Source: an uncultured Verrucomicrobiae bacterium
GTDB taxonomy: Bacteria; Verrucomicrobiota; Verrucomicrobiia; Limisphaerales; Palsa-1400
Reading direction: 5' to 3'
DNA length: 64,000 nucleotides
Assembly: GCA_963764165.1 (NCBI GenBank)
Contig: CAVXRD010000002.1
Location: 1,728,001-1,792,000, forward strand
In this document: one piece after another, positions 4,090 to 15,827 of the stretch
How the letters are laid out: the number at the start of each line of letters is the position of its first letter
Position numbering within the stretch: position 1 is the stretch's first letter
Translations under genes and position numbers: made by a program
Notes under the pieces: model-generated
Database searches by the model: none
What the model saw: only the letters and a program-made list of their open reading frames with translations
Told to the model about the DNA's origin: nothing

Positions 4090-5217
4090 TTACAAAGGTA
4101 GGGACGCCTCGCCGAGGCGTCCGGTTGCGTGTGTGTTCGCCCGCAGGTTGCGCATAATTGACGCCTCACCCCGGACGCCTCGGCGAGGCGTCCCTACCTT
4201 AATTTGCTGCTGCTGTTCTTCCTGTTGAATCATGATTTCGCCCGTGATGTTCGTGAAATCCTGGAAGATGTAAGCGTTGAAAGCCGCCTCGCCAATGGCG
4301 TTGAGCTTGCTTTGAAATTGATCGAGATAGGTGTGCAGACCGAGATCGAAAATTTCCTCGATGGTGCTGAATTGCAATTCGGCTTCCAACCGGCCTGCGA
4401 GTTTTTCGGCGTCGTTGCAAAATCTCCCGCTCGGCACGCCAGATATTTGGCGCAAAGCGCCGTTCAATTCCGCCACGCAAAAACGCGCCGACCGCGGGAA
4501 ATCCTCGTTGAAAAGCAAGAATTCCGCAACGTGCCTGGGATGAACATCCGCGCCGTGAATGGATTTGTATGCGTCCCACGCGCTGCACGAGCGCAACACC
4601 GCGGACCACCCCAGCGCCTCCGCCTGGCTCACGCTTTCCGGCAATCCTCGCTCCGGCAGGCTTTGATAGCGGACGTCAAGTATGCGGGACGTTTTGTCCG
4701 CCCGCTCAAGATATTGGCCGGCCATCGAAAACCACCAGCCTTCATTTCGCAAAATGGTGGCCCGGCCCAATCCGACCAGCAGCAATGAAGCGGATTTGAT
4801 TTGCTGAAAAAATTCGCTCGGGCTTTGCCGCCAGACTTTCCGCGCCTCATTCGAGCGAACGAAAAGATAGAGGCGGTTTAATTCCTCCCAGAATTCGATG
4901 GAAATCTGGTCGCGCACCATGCGGGCATTTTCGCGCGCCTGGCAGACGGAGGAGAAAATCGAATTCGCATTCTCCGGCTGGAAGACGAGAAATTCCGTCA
5001 CGGCATGGCCGGTCGCATTCTTGTGCAGCTCAAGGAACTGCTTTTCGTCACCCGTGCTCAGCAAAACAGGCATCCAGTATTGGGTCAGGCGCTCATCGTC
5101 CAGGCTGCGCATGTCCAGGATGAGTTGGAGATTCACATCGACGATGCGCGCGATGTTTTCGGCGCGCTCGATGTAGCGCGACATCCAGTAAAGGCAGTTG
5201 GCGACGCGGCTAAGCAT
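4090..5217 (-). CDS. Alpha-E domain protein (DUF403-like)
   Basis: MLSRVANCLYWMSRYIERAENIAR, ARENAR, GQYLERAD and FPRS motifs; sits directly downstream of the CP-ATP-grasp gene. The last ~36 codons run through a REP doublet. Confidence 0.9.
   Translation of the reverse strand: MLSRVANCLYWMSRYIERAENIARIVDVNLQLILDMRSLDDERLTQYWMPVLLSTGDEKQFLELHKNATGHAVTEFLVFQPENANSIFSSVCQARENARMVRDQISIEFWEELNRLYLFVRSNEARKVWRQSPSEFFQQIKSASLLLVGLGRATILRNEGWWFSMAGQYLERADKTSRILDVRYQSLPERGLPESVSQAEALGWSAVLRSCSAWDAYKSIHGADVHPRHVAEFLLFNEDFPRSARFCVAELNGALRQISGVPSGRFCNDAEKLAGRLEAELQFSTIEEIFDLGLHTYLDQFQSKLNAIGEAAFNAYIFQDFTNITGEIMIQQEEQQQQIKVGTPRRGVRGEASIMRNLRANTHATGRLGEASLPL
4095..4200. repeat. GTAG-REP doublet (REPIN-like), family A
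   Basis: aaggTAGGGACGCCTCGCCGAGGCGTCCgg ... ccGGACGCCTCGGCGAGGCGTCCCTACCtt: two inverted palindromic arms with a GTAG foot. Confidence 0.9.
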
Positions 5218-6997: not shown

Positions 6998-7858
6998 TCA
7001 TTTTTGATTGGCTTCAGGCGTTACTTTGTCGATGTTCGGCGTGACGTCCGCGTCCACCTGGCCGGTTGACCACTTCAATCCGCCGAGCAAAATCTGCTGA
7101 AACGTCGGATCCATCCAAACTTCAATGCGATGCCCCAAACTGGTGTAGAAGACGCGCCCTTTGCCGTACATTTGAGCCCAAGTGGAGGGATAATTTGGGC
7201 GGTTATATGGCCCAATTTTTCCCATCTTCGCAGTGTCGTGATAAAGCAAAACGTGGAGATTTGGCGAAAAATTCTTCATCGAATACCACTCTTCCTCCGG
7301 GCCGTAATCATCCGCGACAGAACTGAGGCCGGGAAAATTGCGATCAGCCACCACCAAATGCCCCGGCACCCAGTGCTCGTAGTGCGTTACGAACTCGCCG
7401 CCGATCATTTGAATGAATGGATCGACCGTGTTGCCCTTGCTGTGAAACGTGTCTGTTGCGCTGTGAATGCCAACAAATCCCTTGCCGCCGCGAATTGCCG
7501 CGAGAAAAGCCTCTTTGCCGCCTTTGGGCATCGGCGGGTCATGGTGTTCGCCGAGTTCTGTCAAATCACCAGTCGTGTAAAAACAGAACGCATCGAAACT
7601 GGCGATTTTTTCCGGCGTAAAAATCGAACCGTCCTTCGTGAAGGTGAACCGCAAATTATTTGGAGGCCCCAATTCAGCCAGGATGCGCTCGGCCTGGCTT
7701 GGCCCGCCATTTTCGGAGCGAATCATGTCGTGCTGATAGCCGGACGATTTGGAGAAAAAGAGAATTTTCTTTGGAGTATCGCCGGCGCGCGCCCGCGGGC
7801 AAATGATCACCGCCGCGGCAAAGACAGCGGAGCAAACGAAGCAGAGGAAGTTTTTCAT
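6998..7858 (-). CDS. Secreted ThuA-like (class I glutamine amidotransferase-fold) protein
   Basis: Signal peptide; ILFFSKSSGYQH, GKGFVGIHSATDT, EEWY and GKGRVFYTSLGH motifs. Confidence 0.85.
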   Translation of the reverse strand: MKNFLCFVCSAVFAAAVIICPRARAGDTPKKILFFSKSSGYQHDMIRSENGGPSQAERILAELGPPNNLRFTFTKDGSIFTPEKIASFDAFCFYTTGDLTELGEHHDPPMPKGGKEAFLAAIRGGKGFVGIHSATDTFHSKGNTVDPFIQMIGGEFVTHYEHWVPGHLVVADRNFPGLSSVADDYGPEEEWYSMKNFSPNLHVLLYHDTAKMGKIGPYNRPNYPSTWAQMYGKGRVFYTSLGHRIEVWMDPTFQQILLGGLKWSTGQVDADVTPNIDKVTPEANQK

Positions 7859-8047
7859 TGGATCATCATTTTCTCCATCCAGTTAACCCGCTGCCACTCG
7901 CATTTGCCAACAAAAAGGCAGGAATGCATCGGCGCCTTCCCAATACGTCTTATAAGTCCTATAGGTACTATAAGTCCCATTCCCACTGGCCGGAAACCCT
8001 CGCATTTTGTGCTCGATTTCCCGCCCGGTTTGCGCCAGCCATTTCTG

Positions 8048-10936
8048 GTGAACACTATTCGAGGAACTCGTGCCGTGCTTTCCCTTGCGGCGATTTTATT
8101 CATCACCATTGCGCCCGCGCGCGCGGCGGATTCGCCGCCCCGCGAGAAACTGCTGCTGGATTTTGGGTGGAAATTTCACCTTGGCGATGACTGGGGCAAG
8201 AGCGAACGCCTCGACAAGGCGGGCGTGAATCCCGGCCCGGCTGGGCGCTCGTTTAACGACGCCCGGTGGCGCACTGTCAACCTGCCGCACGACTGGGTTC
8301 CCGAGCTTCCATTCGACCAGCACGCTGCCACGGACCACGGTTTCAAACCTGTCGGGCCGGGCTTTCCCTCGAATAGCATCGCGTGGTACCGCCGGACATT
8401 TTCGCTGCCCGCCGAGGACAAGGGCCGCCGCCTGATGTTGGAATTCGACGGCGTTTATCGCAATGCGCGCATTTACGTGAATGGCTATTTCCTCGGCCAT
8501 CATGAGAGCGGCTACATGGGATTCCGCTATGACATCACCGATTTGGCGCGATTCGGCAGTGACAACACTATTTCCGTCCGGGTGGATGCTTCGCAATTTG
8601 AAGGATGGTTTTATGAGGGCGCGGGAATTTACCGGCACGTCTGGCTCACCAAGACCAGCCCGCTGCACGTCGCGCCGGACGGAACTTTTGTTTACAGCCA
8701 GTTTCCGAAGAACATTCCCGAGGGCGCCGCGCTGATTCACGTCGAGACCAGCCTGCAAAACGACCAGGACGCCGGCCAGTCCGCCGCCGTCGAATGCGAA
8801 ATTCTCGATCCTGCCGGAAAAGCCGTGGCCCATTTTCAACAATCAGTGCCGGTCGAAGCGTGTTCCACTAAGACCCTGACGCAACTCGCGCCCGTCCAAT
8901 CCCCCGCGCTCTGGTCGCCTGAAACTCCGAACCTCTACAAGCTTATCACCAAGGTTTCGGTTGACAGTAAGGAAGTGGATCGCACGGAAACAGAATTCGG
9001 CATTCGCACCCTGGAATTCGATGCCAATCGCGGCTTTCTCTTGAACGGAAAATTCTGCGAGATCAAAGGCACCTGCAATCACCAGGACCACGCTGGCGTC
9101 GGATCCGCGCTGCCGGATCGATTGCAATTTTTCCGTGTGAGCCGGTTGAAGGATATGGGTGATAATGGCATCCGCACCTCGCACAACGCGCCGACGCCGG
9201 AGCTGCTGGACGCGTGCGACCATCTCGGCATGATGGTCATGGACGAAAATCGCCTGCTCGGCAGCGACGCGCAAAATTTGGATTACCTCGCCGCGCAAAT
9301 CCGGCGCGACCGCAATCATCCGAGCGTCATCATTTGGTCGCTTTTCAATGAGGAAGACACGCAAACCAGCCCCACCGCGCGAAACATCGCCGCCACCATG
9401 CAGAGGGTCGTCCATGAGTTGGACCCGACGCGCCTCTGCACCGCGGCTGGAAATGTCGGCAATGTTTATCAGGGCGTGAACAGCGTCCTGGACGTGCGCG
9501 GCTGGAATTATTATCCGGACTCCGTCGATGGCTACCATCGCGACCATCCGAACCAGCCGGAAATCGGCACCGAGCAGGCCAGCGCCCTGAGCACGCGCGG
9601 CATTTACGCCAACGACAAAACGCGCGGCTACATGAGCGCCTATGACACCAACGCGCCGCCGTGGGCCACCACCTCCGAGCATTGGTGGAAGATTTTTGCG
9701 GCGCGCCCGTGGCTCTCAGGCGGATTCGTATGGACGGGTTTCGACTATCGCGGCGAGCCGACGCCTTACACCTGGCCGTGCATCAATTCGCATTTCGGAG
9801 TGCTGGACACCTGCGGATTCGCCAAGGATAATTTCTACTATTATCAGGCGTGGTGGAGCGACCGCGTCGTGCTCCATATCTTGCCGCATTGGAATTGGGC
9901 TGGCAAGGAAGGGCAGGATATTGACGTGCGCTGCTACAGCAATTGCGAGGAGGTTGAAATGTTCCTGAACGGCCAGAGCCTTGGCCGCCAGACGATGTCC
10001 ACCAATTCGCACCTCAAATGGAATGTCAAATACACGCCCGGAACGCTGCTGGCGAAGGGATACAAGAATGGCCAGGTCGTCGCGGAGGACAAAGTCGAAA
10101 CCACCGGGGCTCCCGTCGCTGTCAAATTAACCGCGGACCGCACAACGATCGACGCAAACGGCGAAGACCTCTCCATTATCACGGTCGCAGTGACGGACGC
10201 CGAAGGCCGGATAGTGCCGCTGGCCAGCAATGAAATTCAATTCACGCTGCAAGGAAACCTCAAAGATCCAGCCATCTCGCCCGGAAAAATCCTCGGCGTC
10301 GGCAATGGCGACCCGAGCTGCCACGAGCCGGATGTGTATGTCCCGAGTCAGCCGAGCCATTCAGTGGGATTGCACGACTGGCGCTACAAACGCGGGCCGC
10401 ATTCCGAAGCCATGAAGGAAACCACCGAGAATTTCGATATCGGCGATTGGGTTTCGGTGGACACCAGCCGCGAGACCGGCCCTCTAAGTCCGAATACGGA
10501 CGCTGTGTTCCGCACCACGTTCGATGCCACTCCCGCGATGTTGAGCGCAACGGGCGTCAATCTGAATTTCGGCATGATCGATGACGAGGGACTGGTTTAT
10601 GTCAACGGCCACAAGGTCGGCGAATCGCACAATTGGGAGGAGCAGCCATCTTTTGCGGTCGGAAAATATCTGCACGAAGGTGTCAATACTATCGCCGTCA
10701 GCGTGCAAAATCACGAGGGCTCAGGCGGCGTCAACAAAGGCGTCTCGCTGGAAATCCTGGACCCGCCTAGGCCAACGGTGTGGAAGCGCAGCGTCTTCAA
10801 CGGCCTTGCCCAAGTTATTGTGCAATCCAGCAAGGTGCCGGGATTATTGTCACTCAACGCGACTTCGGATGGGCTGAAAACGGGGGGGCTGCTAATTACA
10901 GCAGCCAGTGCGACACCACGCCCAAGCGCGCCATGA
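8048..10936 (+). CDS. Glycoside hydrolase family 2 (beta-galactosidase-like), secreted
   Basis: LPHDW, LEFDGVY, WFYEGAGIYRHVWL, FGIR, GTCNHQDHAGVG, IRTSHN, RDRNHPSVIIWSLFNEE and WTGFDYRGEP motifs. Start set at GTG 8048, ahead of a signal peptide; the 7130 start in the ORF track overlaps the ThuA gene. Confidence 0.92.
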   Translation: MNTIRGTRAVLSLAAILFITIAPARAADSPPREKLLLDFGWKFHLGDDWGKSERLDKAGVNPGPAGRSFNDARWRTVNLPHDWVPELPFDQHAATDHGFKPVGPGFPSNSIAWYRRTFSLPAEDKGRRLMLEFDGVYRNARIYVNGYFLGHHESGYMGFRYDITDLARFGSDNTISVRVDASQFEGWFYEGAGIYRHVWLTKTSPLHVAPDGTFVYSQFPKNIPEGAALIHVETSLQNDQDAGQSAAVECEILDPAGKAVAHFQQSVPVEACSTKTLTQLAPVQSPALWSPETPNLYKLITKVSVDSKEVDRTETEFGIRTLEFDANRGFLLNGKFCEIKGTCNHQDHAGVGSALPDRLQFFRVSRLKDMGDNGIRTSHNAPTPELLDACDHLGMMVMDENRLLGSDAQNLDYLAAQIRRDRNHPSVIIWSLFNEEDTQTSPTARNIAATMQRVVHELDPTRLCTAAGNVGNVYQGVNSVLDVRGWNYYPDSVDGYHRDHPNQPEIGTEQASALSTRGIYANDKTRGYMSAYDTNAPPWATTSEHWWKIFAARPWLSGGFVWTGFDYRGEPTPYTWPCINSHFGVLDTCGFAKDNFYYYQAWWSDRVVLHILPHWNWAGKEGQDIDVRCYSNCEEVEMFLNGQSLGRQTMSTNSHLKWNVKYTPGTLLAKGYKNGQVVAEDKVETTGAPVAVKLTADRTTIDANGEDLSIITVAVTDAEGRIVPLASNEIQFTLQGNLKDPAISPGKILGVGNGDPSCHEPDVYVPSQPSHSVGLHDWRYKRGPHSEAMKETTENFDIGDWVSVDTSRETGPLSPNTDAVFRTTFDATPAMLSATGVNLNFGMIDDEGLVYVNGHKVGESHNWEEQPSFAVGKYLHEGVNTIAVSVQNHEGSGGVNKGVSLEILDPPRPTVWKRSVFNGLAQVIVQSSKVPGLLSLNATSDGLKTGGLLITAASATPRPSAP

Positions 10937-10938
10937 GT

Positions 10939-11042
10939 TAAAGGTAGGGACGCCTCGCCGAGGCGTCCGGTTGCGCGTGAATAATGCAAGGGGTCCTCGC
11001 ATAAAGAGCGCCTCACCCCGGACGCCTCGGCGAGGCGTCCCT
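10939..11042. repeat. GTAG-REP doublet, family A; right arm interrupted by IS1111-type element (remainder at 12478-12486)
   Basis: Left arm taaaggtagggacgcctcgccgaggcgtcc. Right arm ggacgcctcggcgaggcgtccCT stops at 11042 and continues as CTaccttta at 12478-12486. Confidence 0.92.
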
Positions 11043-11119
11043 GCTATGAATATTGTCAAGTGACTAAACGGGTTCTACGTCATTTTCTTTTTTTGTTTAA
11101 ATGTTTTGATCTTATTTCG

Positions 11120-11310
11120 GAGCGTTTCCTCTTCTGGGTTCGACGGAATGCTTCCGTCGTCCAACCTGCTATCCGCACTTGTTTTTCACAGTGCCATATG
11201 ACGTTTTCGTGTCGGAAGAGGAACGAGCGCGCCCAATCTACCTTTCGGGTTCAGTTCAACTGACCCAAGGGACGGGCGGGCGCGCGCCGTTCCAAAATCT
11301 AATTTTGGGT
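11120..11310 (-). ncRNA. Putative bridge RNA / seekRNA of the IS1111-type element
   Basis: On the minus strand: 5' hairpin (11292-11308); target-binding internal loop with guides CGUCCCU and AAAGGUAG; donor-binding loop with AUAGCAG and a partial ACGUCAUAU match, closed by stems 11126-11134/11215-11223. The RNA ends are estimated. Confidence 0.8.
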
Positions 11311-11350
11311 CTTCATTTTAAATGCTGTCTTTGGTCTTCCTTTCCCCGGC

Positions 11351-12430
11351 TCAGGCCAGGTGCAGCACGGCGGCGGTGGCCCGCCCGGTTTCCATCCGCC
11401 AAATGTCGATGGCCAGCTTGCGCGCGATGGCCACGATGGCTTTCTTGCGCGCGCCCCGGTTTTGGGTTTGGCCCAGCACCTCCCGCCATCGCACCACCGG
11501 CCCGTAGCTGGGCTGGTAGCGAATGACTCGCCATGCCAGTTCAATCAGCAGCCGCCGCAATCGGGGATTGCCGTGCTTGGTGATGGAGCCCGAGATGCTG
11601 TGGCTGCCGCTGGCCTGCACTCCCGGACACAGGCCCGTCAAGCTGGCGACCTGGCGGCGATTGGCGAACCGGTTCCAGTCGAAGACTTCGCGGCGCAGCG
11701 TTTCGCTGGTCAGCAGTCCGACTCCTTTGGGCTGGGGCTTGGCCTGGCTTTGGATCTTGATGGTCACTTCTTGCAGCAGCTTGTCGGCGCCGGCTGCCAG
11801 CGCGCGCAGGATTTCCAAAATGGAGGACAGCCAGGCGGGCAGTTTGGCTTTGTGCTTCACCCATGCCCCCTCCTTCCACCATTGCCCGCTGACCCGGTGG
11901 CCATTGTAAAGCAAGAGGCTGCGTCCTTGGGCCTCATGGGTTTGCCGGTCCTTTTGCAGCTGCTCGCGCAGGCGGGTTTGGGCCCGGACTTGTTCCTGCT
12001 CGGGGGTGGGCACGGTGATGACGGCCAGGGCCTTGCGGTTGCCCTGCACATAGCGGTCCAGCCGCTGAACCATGGCCAGGGCGTCGGTCTTGTCAGTCTT
12101 TACCCCGCGGCCCAACTCATCCCAGTTCTGGGGGCGGACAACGATGTTCTTGACGCCCATTTTCAGCAGCGCTCGATGCAGGGCGTAACCGAAGGCCCCG
12201 GCTTCGTAGCAACTATGCACTTCCCCGGCCAGAGTCAGTTGCTTGGCGGCGAACTTCAGGAAGTCCTCCGGTGTCATTTTCTGGGCCGGCTGAGGCGTGG
12301 CGTCATCGATCTGGCGCACGACTCGGTAACTGTCCGCGTGCACATCCACGCCCAGTTTTATCCGGGTGTATTTGCACGGTGTTTGTGTTTTATTGTTCGC
12401 GTGGGTATTGGTAACGGTGTTCTTTTTCAT
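11351..12430 (-). CDS. IS110/IS1111 family transposase (DEDD RuvC-like recombinase)
   Basis: GVDVH, CYEAG and KTDKTDA (D-E-D-D); C-terminal domain with GVGLLTS, GLCPGVQASG (catalytic Ser) and ITKHGNPRLRRLLIELAW, ending KKAIVAIARKL. Confidence 0.95.
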   Translation of the reverse strand: MKKNTVTNTHANNKTQTPCKYTRIKLGVDVHADSYRVVRQIDDATPQPAQKMTPEDFLKFAAKQLTLAGEVHSCYEAGAFGYALHRALLKMGVKNIVVRPQNWDELGRGVKTDKTDALAMVQRLDRYVQGNRKALAVITVPTPEQEQVRAQTRLREQLQKDRQTHEAQGRSLLLYNGHRVSGQWWKEGAWVKHKAKLPAWLSSILEILRALAAGADKLLQEVTIKIQSQAKPQPKGVGLLTSETLRREVFDWNRFANRRQVASLTGLCPGVQASGSHSISGSITKHGNPRLRRLLIELAWRVIRYQPSYGPVVRWREVLGQTQNRGARKKAIVAIARKLAIDIWRMETGRATAAVLHLA

Positions 12431-12491
12431 ACCTTGGTGTAGCACCCGTTGTGCTCACCTGCCAATACCCATGCCATCTACCTTTATCGCC

Positions 12492-13028
12492 CTAGTCCAG
12501 CACTCGGTAGTAGTAACTTGCCGCGCAAAAACCGCCGTCGGGGAATAACGCGAAATTCGGAACATCGCCCACCCGGACCCAGCCGAGTTTTTCGTAAAGC
12601 CGCGCGCCGTCGCTTCCCGTCACTGTGTCAAGTGTGAGCAGCGTCCGACCGCATTCGCGCGCGGTTTGCTCGGCCGCGCGCATCAGGGCCGCGCCCAATC
12701 CGCGCCGCCGCGCCCGGCGATGGACGAGCATTTTCATAATTTCGGCGCGGTGCTGCTGGTTCTCCGGGCTGGCCAGGCCAAGTTGCACTGTTCCACAAAT
12801 TCCCTGTTCGTCCTCAGCTACAAAAAGTATGCGCTCGCCGGACACGACGCCGCTCGCGACTTTTCGCCAAAAGTCGATGGCCCTTTCTCGTGAAACCGGG
12901 TTCATGAAATGCACGCTCGCGCCGCCCTGCACGCAGTCGACAAGAACGTCCGCCAACTGGAGAAGGTGGCGCTCCTCAACAGCATCCAATTTGCGCGGAA
13001 CCAATGAGCATGGAGACGCATCTGACAC
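12492..13028 (-). CDS. GNAT family N-acetyltransferase
   Basis: GASVHF, GTVQL, NQQHRAEIMKMLVHRRARRRGLG and LTLDT...LYEKLGW motifs; start GTG 13028 is an estimate. Confidence 0.88.
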   Translation of the reverse strand: MSDASPCSLVPRKLDAVEERHLLQLADVLVDCVQGGASVHFMNPVSRERAIDFWRKVASGVVSGERILFVAEDEQGICGTVQLGLASPENQQHRAEIMKMLVHRRARRRGLGAALMRAAEQTARECGRTLLTLDTVTGSDGARLYEKLGWVRVGDVPNFALFPDGGFCAASYYYRVLD

Positions 13029-13100
13029 GACGGCGAGATACAACCATGCCGGCCTGCGCGTCAATTTCAAATCGACGCTCATCCGGAATCACAAATATTA

Positions 13101-13189
13101 AACAGGAGGAAGACCGAGAGCGCAGAGAAAAATGCCCAATTCGCCAAACAATCATTTTTGGCCTCCGCGCCCTCGGTCTTTCTCCTGTT
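13101..13189. repeat. Long imperfect inverted repeat (family D)
   Basis: aacaggaggaagaccgagagcgcagag versus the reverse complement of 13163-13189: 24/27 match. Confidence 0.7.
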
Positions 13190-13268
13190 CAAATTCTTAA
13201 TGGATGAACTTCGCTGCATTTATCGCATTGGCAAACGTCGCCTCGCAAGTTACAAAAAGGGGGCTTAA

Positions 13269-15827
13269 ATGAGCCAGACCGTCATCGAAACGGAGCCACC
13301 AATCTCTGCTGATTTGCTCGCGGATTATCCGCGCGGAGGAGGATTTGACGAGGCCTTTTCAACCGGCAAGGAATTGCTCCCCCACTATGCGCCGTTCATT
13401 GCGGCCGCGCAAAAACTGGGCGCGGCGGAATTGAAGCGGCGCCGCGAAACCTGCCGCCGCCTCCTGCACGAGCAAGGGATCACTTACAATATTTCCTCCG
13501 GCGCCAAGGAGCCGACGATGCAGCAGCCGTGGCAGCTTGATCCCGTTCCGCTGATCATCGCGCCGGACGAATGGCGCGCGCTGGAAGAGGCGCTGATCCA
13601 GCGGGCCACGCTTATCAATTCCGTGCTGGCCGATTGCTACGGGCCGCAGGAATTGATTCGCACCCGCCGCCTGCCGCCCGCGCTCGTTTTTGCCCAGCCG
13701 GATTTTCTGCGCCCCTGCCGCAACGTCCGCCCGCAGAATGATGCCTATCTCAATTTTTACGCGGCGGATTTGGGCCGCTCGCCTGATGGGCAATGGTGGG
13801 TCGTCTCGGACCGCACGCAAGTTCCCACCGGCGCCGGTTATGCCCTGGCGAATCGATTGGTGACCTCCCGTGCTTTGCCCGAGCCATTCCGAAGCTGTCA
13901 AGTGAATCGACTGGCGGGCTTCTTCCGCGACATGCAGATTTCGCTGGCCAGCCTCGCCCCGCGCCAATCGGATAATCCGCGCATCGTCTTCTTGACGCCC
14001 GGTCCTTACAGCGAGACGTATTGCGAGCAAAGCTATCTCGCGCGTTATCTCGGCTACATGCTCGTTGAGGGCCAGGATTTGACGGTGCGCGACGACAAGG
14101 TCTATCTGAAAACCCTGAGCGGCCTTGAGCAAGTCGATGTGATTTTTCGCCGGGTCGATGATGATTTTTGCGATCCGCTGGAATTGCGCAACGATTCCAT
14201 TCTCGGCGTGCCCGGATTGCTGGAAGCCTTGCGGGCGGGCAACGTCGCGGTGGCCAATTCGCTCGGGGCGGGCCTGCTGCAAAGTCCGGCGGTGATGGCC
14301 TTTTTGCCGGGGCTCTGCCAGCACCTGCTGGGAGAGGATTTGAAAATGCCCTCGGTGGCGACGTGGTGGTGCGGGCAGGAAGAGGCGCGAAAATACGTGC
14401 TGGAAAGCCTCGACCAGCTTCCCGTCCGTTCAGCCTTCCGGCTTGACGCTCCCGAGCGCGAGGGCCGATTGAAATTAAGCGCGGCCCAGCGCGAGGCGCT
14501 GAAGCGGCGCATCGAATTCCAGCCGCATCTTTTCGCCGCGCAAGAGGAATTGAAACTTTCGACTGCGCCGTCGTGGGTCTCGGGCGAAATTCTGCCGCGT
14601 CCCGTGTCCCTTCGCGTTTATTTGGTGGCCATCGGCGGCACTTACAAAATGATGGCCGGCGGCCTCACTCGCGTGGCGGCGGCGACGCAGTGGCACACGC
14701 TCTCGATGCATCACGGCGGCGTGAGCAAGGACACCTGGGTCTTGAGCCATCAACCCGTCGAAGCCGTCACGCTGCTTCACCCGGCCGAAGGAGCGATTGA
14801 ATTGCGGCGGGTGGGAAATAATTTGCCGTCGCGCCTGGCGGACAATTTCTTCTGGCTGGGCCGGTATGAGGAGCGGGCGGATGCGACGGCGCGTTTGCTG
14901 CGAAGCGCCTTCGCCCGGTTCGGCCCGGAAAATCTCGGCGGAGCGCAGCCGCAACTGTGGCCCATCTTGCAGGCGCTCAAATTGCCGCGCAGAACTAATG
15001 AACCCGAATCCGAAGCTGACGCGGAGGCGCCGCCACCCGTGACGGAATTGGATTTGTGGGCCTTGATTTTCGATCCCGGCATGCCCGGCAGCCTTCGCGA
15101 TACGGCGGCAAATTTGCAGCGCCTGGCCGTATTTCTGCGCGAGCGGACGTCCAACGATTTGTGGCAGGTGCTGAGCTCGCTGGCCGACCGGCTCGCCATG
15201 CCGGCGGGAACAATGGGTTCGCTGGCGGGGGATGCAGCCGGATTGCTGAGCCAGGTTCTCAGCAGCCTGGCGGCATTCCGCGGCCTGGCCCGCGAGAACA
15301 TGACACGCGCCCACGGCTGGCGTTTTCTTGACATGGGCCAGCGCATCGAGCGCGCGATTCATCTCTGCGCCTTTTTGGACCATGCTCTGGCTTCGCCCGA
15401 GGCGGACAATCCCAGCGTGCTCGAAGCGGTGCTGGAAGTGGCCGACAGTTCGATCACCTACCGCGGCCGCTACAATCTGCTGCCGAACATTGCGACGGTG
15501 TATGATTTAGTCTTGCTCGATGACACCAATCCGCGTTCGCTGTTGTTCCAATTGAACCAACTGGTCAAACATTTCGAGCGGCTGCCGGGCGAACGCGAGA
15601 GCGCGCTGCCCAGCGCGGGCAACCGCATTTTAATCGAATGTTTGACAGAAGTGCGCCTGCTGGACCCGCGCGATTTGAACAAGCTCAAGGGCGGCTGGCA
15701 GGAGAGCGCGGCCGGGCGCGTCATCCAGGATGTGCTGCGCCAGATGCCGCTGCTTTCGGATGCGATTGCGGCGAGTTATTTTGCGCACTCCGCGATTTCC
15801 CGCGCCGGCGGGAGCGACATGCGCTGA
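13269..15827 (+). CDS. Circularly permuted ATP-grasp fused to alpha-E domain
   Basis: GITYN, WQLDPVP, YAADLGRSPDGQWWVVSDRTQVPTGAGY, RRVDDDFCDPLEL and SKDTWV, followed by LPSRLADNFFWLGRYEERAD and GWRFLDMGQRIERA. Confidence 0.92.
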   Translation: MSQTVIETEPPISADLLADYPRGGGFDEAFSTGKELLPHYAPFIAAAQKLGAAELKRRRETCRRLLHEQGITYNISSGAKEPTMQQPWQLDPVPLIIAPDEWRALEEALIQRATLINSVLADCYGPQELIRTRRLPPALVFAQPDFLRPCRNVRPQNDAYLNFYAADLGRSPDGQWWVVSDRTQVPTGAGYALANRLVTSRALPEPFRSCQVNRLAGFFRDMQISLASLAPRQSDNPRIVFLTPGPYSETYCEQSYLARYLGYMLVEGQDLTVRDDKVYLKTLSGLEQVDVIFRRVDDDFCDPLELRNDSILGVPGLLEALRAGNVAVANSLGAGLLQSPAVMAFLPGLCQHLLGEDLKMPSVATWWCGQEEARKYVLESLDQLPVRSAFRLDAPEREGRLKLSAAQREALKRRIEFQPHLFAAQEELKLSTAPSWVSGEILPRPVSLRVYLVAIGGTYKMMAGGLTRVAAATQWHTLSMHHGGVSKDTWVLSHQPVEAVTLLHPAEGAIELRRVGNNLPSRLADNFFWLGRYEERADATARLLRSAFARFGPENLGGAQPQLWPILQALKLPRRTNEPESEADAEAPPPVTELDLWALIFDPGMPGSLRDTAANLQRLAVFLRERTSNDLWQVLSSLADRLAMPAGTMGSLAGDAAGLLSQVLSSLAAFRGLARENMTRAHGWRFLDMGQRIERAIHLCAFLDHALASPEADNPSVLEAVLEVADSSITYRGRYNLLPNIATVYDLVLLDDTNPRSLLFQLNQLVKHFERLPGERESALPSAGNRILIECLTEVRLLDPRDLNKLKGGWQESAAGRVIQDVLRQMPLLSDAIAASYFAHSAISRAGGSDMR

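Follow-up and report, generated by a model that had tools for sequence, protein, structure and literature searches.

A REP-inserted IS110-family element of the Limisphaerales with a predicted bridge RNA downstream of its recombinase gene

The 64,000-nucleotide stretch of DNA analysed here (the window) contains an IS110-family element of 1,437 bp, plus one CT core, inside one arm of an inverted GTAG-type REP doublet that lies between a GH2 glycosidase gene and a convergent GNAT gene (Table 1). Two CT dinucleotides bracket an intact, stop-free gene for a DEDD/Ser recombinase, as an initial annotation of this DNA had described, and deletion of 11043-12479 leaves a sequence that is exactly the reverse complement of 10939-10970, bearing out its statement that a copy complementary to the partner REP arm is restored. 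The long non-coding region that it placed downstream of the transposase is likewise present, with 308 nt downstream of the gene against 47 nt upstream. Its account of the sub-terminal repeats held for their offsets from the core, 3 nt at the right end and 5 nt at the left (7 with the core), but the repeats themselves are imperfect, with 9 matches over the first 12 positions and 14 over 18, only 3 of them uninterrupted from the outer end. They are more degenerate than those of most relatives; runs of 9-10 are found in 14 of the 37 relatives compared, and the longest uninterrupted run is at most 10 in all 37. The GH2 reading frame is listed at window positions 7130-10936, and as its first domain begins only at residue 346, far downstream of the listed start, translation probably begins near 8100.

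Table 1. Positions in the window of the element, its predicted RNA parts and the flanking features.
Feature	Position	Strand	Remarks
Intact REP arm A, partner of the interrupted arm	10939..10970	+	GTAG tag 10944-10947; hairpin 10948-10968
REP arm B hairpin = left target (LT), CT-strand convention	11018..11040	-	25-nt perfect inverted repeat with arm A
CT core, right (RNA-side) end	11041-11042	+	Empty-site rebuild
Right sub-terminal inverted repeat, 3 nt from core	11046..11063	-	Contains TTGACA (11059-11054)
Predicted bridge RNA, ~180 nt	11115..11295	-	Target-binding loop, then multi-branch donor-binding loop
Right donor guide (predicted)	11166..11172	-	5 nt + core; handshake GT 11165-11164 after
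Left donor guide, short (predicted)	11198..11202	-	4/5 identical + one U-G wobble; no core pairing
Right target guide (predicted)	11238..11245	-	6 nt + core matched; ~4 nt + core backed by covariation; handshake AT 11237-11236 after
Left target guide (predicted)	11268..11274	-	5 nt + core matched; pairs with transposase-sense strand
IS110-family recombinase, 359 aa	11351..12430	-	D29, E76, D113, D116, S274; PF01548 + PF02371
Left sub-terminal inverted repeat	12455..12472	-	5 nt from core (7 with it)
CT core, left (promoter-side) end	12478-12479	+	Empty-site rebuild
Remainder of REP arm B = right target (RT)	12480..12486	+	Empty-site rebuild
GNAT acetyltransferase gene	12492..13082	-	Ends 12 nt from left core, same direction as transposase

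The interrupted repeat carries the marks of a GTAG-type REP, namely the GTAG tag, a short palindrome, high copy number and an arrangement in inverted doublets, and GTAG repeats have been reported from Verrucomicrobia (PMC3733652). GTAGGGACG occurs at 282 sites genome-wide, with 50 inverted REP doublets, and the 11-mer AGGTAGGGACG at 226 sites where 4.5 are expected. No RAYT gene flanked by the target REP was found, as 0 of 10 Y1_Tnp matches have this REP within 800 nt. Further copies of the target REP lie elsewhere in the window, as an empty doublet (4098-4197) and two single arms (6891 and 42521), and a second type of palindromic repeat with 30-nt arms (87%) occupies 13098-13192; short motifs related to the latter number 91 and 106 in the genome, versus 22 and 28 in reversed controls. 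The element itself is single-copy in this 7.0-Mb genome, despite the 226 matching target sites, and searches of the same genome by blastn, tblastn and motif scans returned no further copies, orphan ends or orphan RNA. The only other IS110 match in the genome is a second, distant transposase (G000:C1:193293-193619; 30% identity along 112 aa) within a 386-aa open frame. Searches of 4 other genus members (completeness 85-95%) gave no empty allele of the locus.

The recombinase scores 166.9 bits against NF033542 (cut-off 140) and combines an N-terminal DEDD RuvC domain with a C-terminal Tnp domain carrying the catalytic Ser, the composition that defines the IS110 family. In 62 aligned relatives D29, E76, D113 and D116 never vary, and S274 almost never does. 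An alignment-based model of the protein reached pLDDT 89.4 (only 39 for a single-sequence model), and its best Foldseek matches are IS621 (E 5e-12) and ISCro4 (E 1.7e-11), at a TM of about 0.6 (0.61) and 19-21% identity. A phmmer search of the PDB gave 0 hits, while a profile search reached both IS621 and ISCro4 at E ~6e-6. Related proteins are plentiful, with 2,761 at E <= 1e-30 among 8,000 scored.

The 308-nt downstream region folds stably (z = -4.63, with 1 of 200 shuffles equally stable) and is predicted to contain a bridge RNA, whose ends as given in Table 1 were set from fold and conservation. In an alignment of 29 relatives, hand-picked from the 85 with RNA, four helices are 98.9% paired and show two-sided change at 15 of 26 pairs, the donor-loop helices being rich in such changes; 0 of 500 shuffles reach these two-sided changes and slid controls gave 33-62%, kin sharing some of the changes. 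The guides, which the initial annotation had not placed, were located in the present analysis. Both target guides sit in the internal loop of the first hairpin, one with a 7-nt match to one flank and the core, the other with an 8-nt match to the other. Of 20,000 dinucleotide shuffles, 1 equalled the two target matches jointly, 86 the right-donor match and none all three. The handshake letters AT and GT are those of wild-type IS621, A81/U82 and G166/U167 (PMC11208158). A search of Rfam returned only mir-4888 (E 0.6, a chance match), and no RNA run is among the matches listed for sequencing runs carrying the element. With all four guides placed, the earlier claim that enzyme, guide RNA, donor and target can be read from one locus holds, and guide matches, fold and covariation all point, at the level of sequence, to the bridge-type RNA programmed for the host REP that had been proposed.

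Relatives at E <= 1e-40 are carried by 34 of 301 genomes of the order, and the relatives' records bear Limisphaerales (Verrucomicrobiota) titles; a motif scan of metagenomes gave at least 120 loci. Among the matches listed, 154 loci were considered; 69 short, divergent or unrelated ones were set aside, leaving 85 in which both RNA anchors are present. Of these 85, 82 allowed the left target guide to be parsed, 65 of them with the right flank, and 40 have the left flank. Because the search motifs for loci and ends themselves contained the core, handshake AT and end sequences, the invariance of these letters is partly built in. The left target guide is identical to its own flank at positions -1 to -6 in fractions of 0.95, 0.95, 0.92, 0.89, 0.82 and 0.60 of the 65 relatives (shuffled 0.42, 0.69, 0.61, 0.50, 0.38 and 0.29). 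For the right target guide the corresponding values at -1 to -4 are 1.0, 1.0, 0.93 and 0.62 in 40 relatives (shuffled 0.48, 0.63, 0.43 and 0.33), with no signal past -4, and at each of these positions, left and right, 0 of 10,000 shuffles matched the observed identity. Since kinship inflates plain covariation tests, close relatives with different guides were also paired. In this comparison the left target guide favoured its own site in 24 of 29 pairs (2 swapped, 3 ties; p 1e-5) and the right target guide in 9 of 12 (0 swapped, 3 ties; p 0.004). Tree-based tests on independent pairs yielded 1-4 supported pairs among the rows listed, too few for significance.

All five of five guide positions match in 46 of 65 relatives, spanning 19 different 5-mers, and it is this natural reprogramming that backs the assignment of the guides. 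Covariation supports target recognition over about 6 + 2 + 4 nt, a site somewhat shorter than the one first predicted for the element. All 5 copies in one genome (G285) share a single site motif. A contig of 1,785 nt from run X4 (~90% identical) begins in the same REP arm, with the element at the same position, extends 4 nt beyond the far core and then passes into a different locus. Among the differences listed, one falls in the right target guide of the X4 element, at a position other than the four that covary. A 217-nt left-end piece with 2 differences is present in runs X1 and X2.

We dropped the idea that all relatives target high-copy repeats, as exact rebuilt sites are high-copy in just 1 of 4 relatives tested: 48 copies against 6 in controls for G253, 8 against 9 for G226, 3 against 0 for G027 and 0 against 1 for G264, counted with patterns that included variable flank. 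The target in G253 (L009, L162, L163) is a GGAG-tagged palindromic repeat, several of whose 48 copies are in doublets; it is a family that is REP-like but tagged differently from the GTAG type. A few loci depart from the common pattern. Two of 65 right ends (L043, L142) have an extra CAG between the right-end core and the resumed target, resembling a 3-nt slipped or duplicated insertion, and at L083 the left flank fits the guide while the right flank does not match at all, possibly through a later rearrangement or as an off-target product. At L001 (approximately 2700-2900) a tandem duplication of ~69 nt affects the 3' part of the RNA region, as compared with a sister copy, L003, in the same genome.

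A donor-binding loop with left and right guides is also predicted, with weaker support than the target guides have. Within the clade the right end and the right donor guide are constant, which follows from the construction of the search. One position of the left donor guide tracks the left end throughout the 41 rows (35 C/C and 6 T/T; shuffled mean 30.7), the six T/T rows deriving from at most two sub-branches and so counting as no more than two independent changes. Better evidence is provided by two distant elements that the search motifs did not select, ISRel9 (30% identity) and one on a Cupriavidus plasmid (36%). Both ends of each are unlike those of the window element, and in each the right donor guide fits over 7 nt, and the left over 5 and 4 nt respectively, at the expected places. 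The left target guide of ISRel9 fits poorly (4 nt). Ends could not be parsed from two G053 copies or from ISSso6, nor the right end from the ISEc45 copy. Covariation of the donor-loop handshake with the target was considered and is unsupported; it fits in the window element but pairs in just 36 of 67 relatives. The Cupriavidus locus (L177, Cupriavidus necator pBB2) has the same architecture and, as its left neighbour, a gene for a group II intron reverse transcriptase.

We estimate a probability of roughly 0.9 that this is an intact insertion sequence of the ISVsp10/ISRel9/ISEc45 branch functioning as a bridge recombinase that targets the host REP. If it behaves as IS621 and ISEc11 do, the transposase mRNA and the downstream ~180-nt RNA would be co-transcribed, through read-through or from a promoter formed at the circle junction, and the RNA would be bound by the DEDD/Ser enzyme. 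The element would circularise, its ends joined through one CT core. The target loop would then pair with both REP strands around the CT of the CTAC (GTAG) tag, over ~6 nt towards the hairpin and ~4 nt towards the tag, while the donor loop would pair with the right end (5 nt and the core) and with ~4 nt of the left end. Strand exchange at CT would leave one core on each side. As to expression, where this model is weakest, the TTGACA at the right end is a candidate -35 for a circle-junction promoter, although the hexamer 17 nt on misfits the -10 consensus; in one sub-branch 5 of 6 rows have a good -10 at this spacing. A promoter scan of 10900-13300 gave 0 sites, and no terminator-like site is listed between the GNAT gene and the transposase. 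It is a reasonable inference that the GNAT gene may supply read-through into the transposase, and we propose this for the window element because read-through drives excision of IS621 (PMC13626964).

Other accounts of the locus differ in what they ask of the RNA. That the protein recognises the REP hairpin, the matches in the non-coding end being chance or captured flank, is favoured by the many relatives whose targets adjoin palindromes; yet shuffles exclude chance (1 of 20,000), the guides follow 19 different targets in register at fixed loop positions, and exact rebuilt sites were high-copy in a single one of the four relatives counted, so that we give this account hardly any credence. A seekRNA variant, in which the ~70-nt target hairpin alone does the work, the protein reads the ends via the sub-terminal repeats and the donor loop is dispensable, fits the ISEc11 result, where an 82-nt short RNA alone supported movement (PMC11187229), and suits a left donor guide of merely ~4 nt that does not pair with the core and a target hairpin that forms a separable module. 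It accords poorly with the many two-sided changes in the donor-loop helices, with the way in which both donor guides of ISRel9 and the Cupriavidus element vary along with their ends, and with sub-terminal repeats as short and imperfect as these, and we consider it unlikely.

A working bridge recombinase remains our preferred reading of the locus, and two further alternatives concern its history and its products. That the element was once active and is now silent or immobile in the present genome would account for a single copy among 226 matching sites, and for degenerate repeats and a poor junction -10, but its reading frame, catalytic residues, four guides and both cores are all intact, and the left-end piece in X1 and X2 and the ~90% copy at another locus in X4 also speak against it; we think this improbable to about the same degree as a seekRNA. 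Somewhat less doubtful, though still short of even odds, is RNA-guided copy-out or direct top-strand transfer in place of reciprocal cut-out and paste-in. Such transfer has been reported for CazIS110-1 (bioRxiv 10.1101/2025.10.25.684509), and a rejoined empty site was undetected for ISEc11 (PMC11187229); IS621, against this, yields both a circle and a rejoined site (PMC13626964), and nothing in the sequence at hand separates copy-out from cut-out and paste-in.

A 31-row tree, built without IS1111, ISEc11, ISPa11, IS621, ISEc21, ISVsp10 and ISCARN28, joins the clade of the window element to ISSso6/ISEc45 and ISRel9/Cupriavidus (support 99/97) and places IS4321, ISEc66, ISKpn2, IS1492 and ISShdy1 in a separate clade (100/99). 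We take these five to be core IS1111 from their place in the first block of Siddiquee's source matrix. Together, the branch of the window element and the core clade stand apart from the IS110-type and four unnamed rows (98/97, under a midpoint root), and forcing the clade to group with the core five was rejected at AU p 0.014, for a set fixed after the tree had been seen. The name IS1111 given by the initial annotation is therefore apt in one of its two senses. In the broad sense of ISfinder and Durrant 2024 it applies, the element having a short left end, a long RNA-bearing right end and sub-terminal repeats of the 7-17 bp class. In the strict sense of Partridge & Hall and Siddiquee 2024 we refuse it: the 7 and 3 bp extensions and a top-strand guide 5' of the bottom-strand guide are present, but the repeats, usually 11-13 bp and perfect or nearly so, match here at 9 of 12 positions, and the transposase falls outside the tight IS1111 clade.

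Comparison with individual elements gives a similarly mixed picture. ISRel9 shares with the window element an AG-oriented core, a 3' RNA, offsets of 7 and 3 and four guides, and ISEc45 the left end and the right target guide, but the ISRel9/ISEc45/ISSso6/ISCARN28 branch differs in its targets and ends and in sequence (27-30% identity). ISCARN28, for which a bridge RNA is predicted in Fig. 6d of Durrant et al. (PMC11208160), sits between ISSso6 and ISEc45 in Siddiquee's matrix (PMC11187229). The likeness to IS621 and ISCro4 (IS622) covers the fold, DEDD + Ser, the CT core, the handshake letters and insertion at the CT of the REP's CTAC; the IS621 RNA, at 177 nt, is of similar length, and its target-loop layout in the template of the Durrant supplement looks similar by eye. 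In the window element, unlike these two, the RNA lies downstream of the gene, and with the core as reference both are on the other strand; its donor loop is multi-branched, its left donor guide is short and its sub-terminal repeats are longer, and the identity is 19-21%. Among core IS1111 elements with a tested seekRNA, ISEc11, ISKpn4, ISPst6 and ISPa11 share the 3' non-coding RNA, the 7/3 extensions and the guide order, and ISPa11, like the window element, targets REPs; the window element lacks the 11-13 bp near-perfect repeats of that group and is 24-28% identical over full length to ISKpn2, IS4321 and ISEc66. ISPpu9 of Pseudomonas putida likewise inserts at AG in REP doublets, its circles being reported to form no new promoter, but it belongs to the IS110 group and, by its paper's account, has no inverted repeats. 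Short imperfect repeats together with a 3' non-coding region are also described for some IS110-type elements (Siddiquee et al., PMC11187229).

The element is a clean further example of the RNA-guided system described in 2024, of which both the principle and the targeting of REPs, published for IS621, ISPa11 and ISPpu9, were already known; a bridge RNA is predicted in 93% of IS1111-group elements (Durrant et al., PMC11208160), and a set of 72 orthologs is given in bioRxiv 10.1101/2025.05.14.653916. More tentatively, and with odds we place below even, the clade may constitute a distinct lineage of bridge recombinases that combines an IS1111-like orientation with an IS621-like target loop and handshake and a real, asymmetric donor loop, re-aimed in nature at no fewer than 19 targets around a fixed core. 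If so, it would offer a direct test of whether elements with a downstream RNA bridge donor and target or merely seek the target, a disagreement on which the donor-guide covariation bears, and a scaffold orthogonal to IS621 and ISCro4. Its set of enzyme, RNA, donor and target is fully readable, in a branch that shares about 20% identity with two engineered enzymes, IS621 and ISCro4, and the relatives form a natural table for guide design over the recognised target.

The description of the element as apparently uncharacterised is right in that no experimental test of the ISVsp10/ISRel9/ISEc45 branch was found in the literature outside subscription papers. Literature searches for IS110 with Verrucomicrobia and bridge RNA, or with Limisphaerales, gave no match, nor did ISVsp10 in main texts. 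Among 18 papers listed for ISEc45, ISSso6, ISCARN28, ISRel9 and ISAzs32, the titles point to mechanism only for the Durrant paper and its preprint. The description needs amending in that a near, unnamed relative is already present in Supplementary Table 1 of Durrant 2024, a Verrucomicrobia protein (163717cc305e97b209) from the clade of the window element that, by eye, has the motifs of the window recombinase through both domains. ISVsp10, the Verrucomicrobia entry in ISfinder, was compared, like that protein, by domain alignments alone, and by eye matches a sister sub-branch (L023/L024/L030) 36-37% identical to the window recombinase. Several of the loci L023-L034 belong to this ISVsp10-like sub-branch, at 35-38% identity, and have a different conserved downstream RNA.
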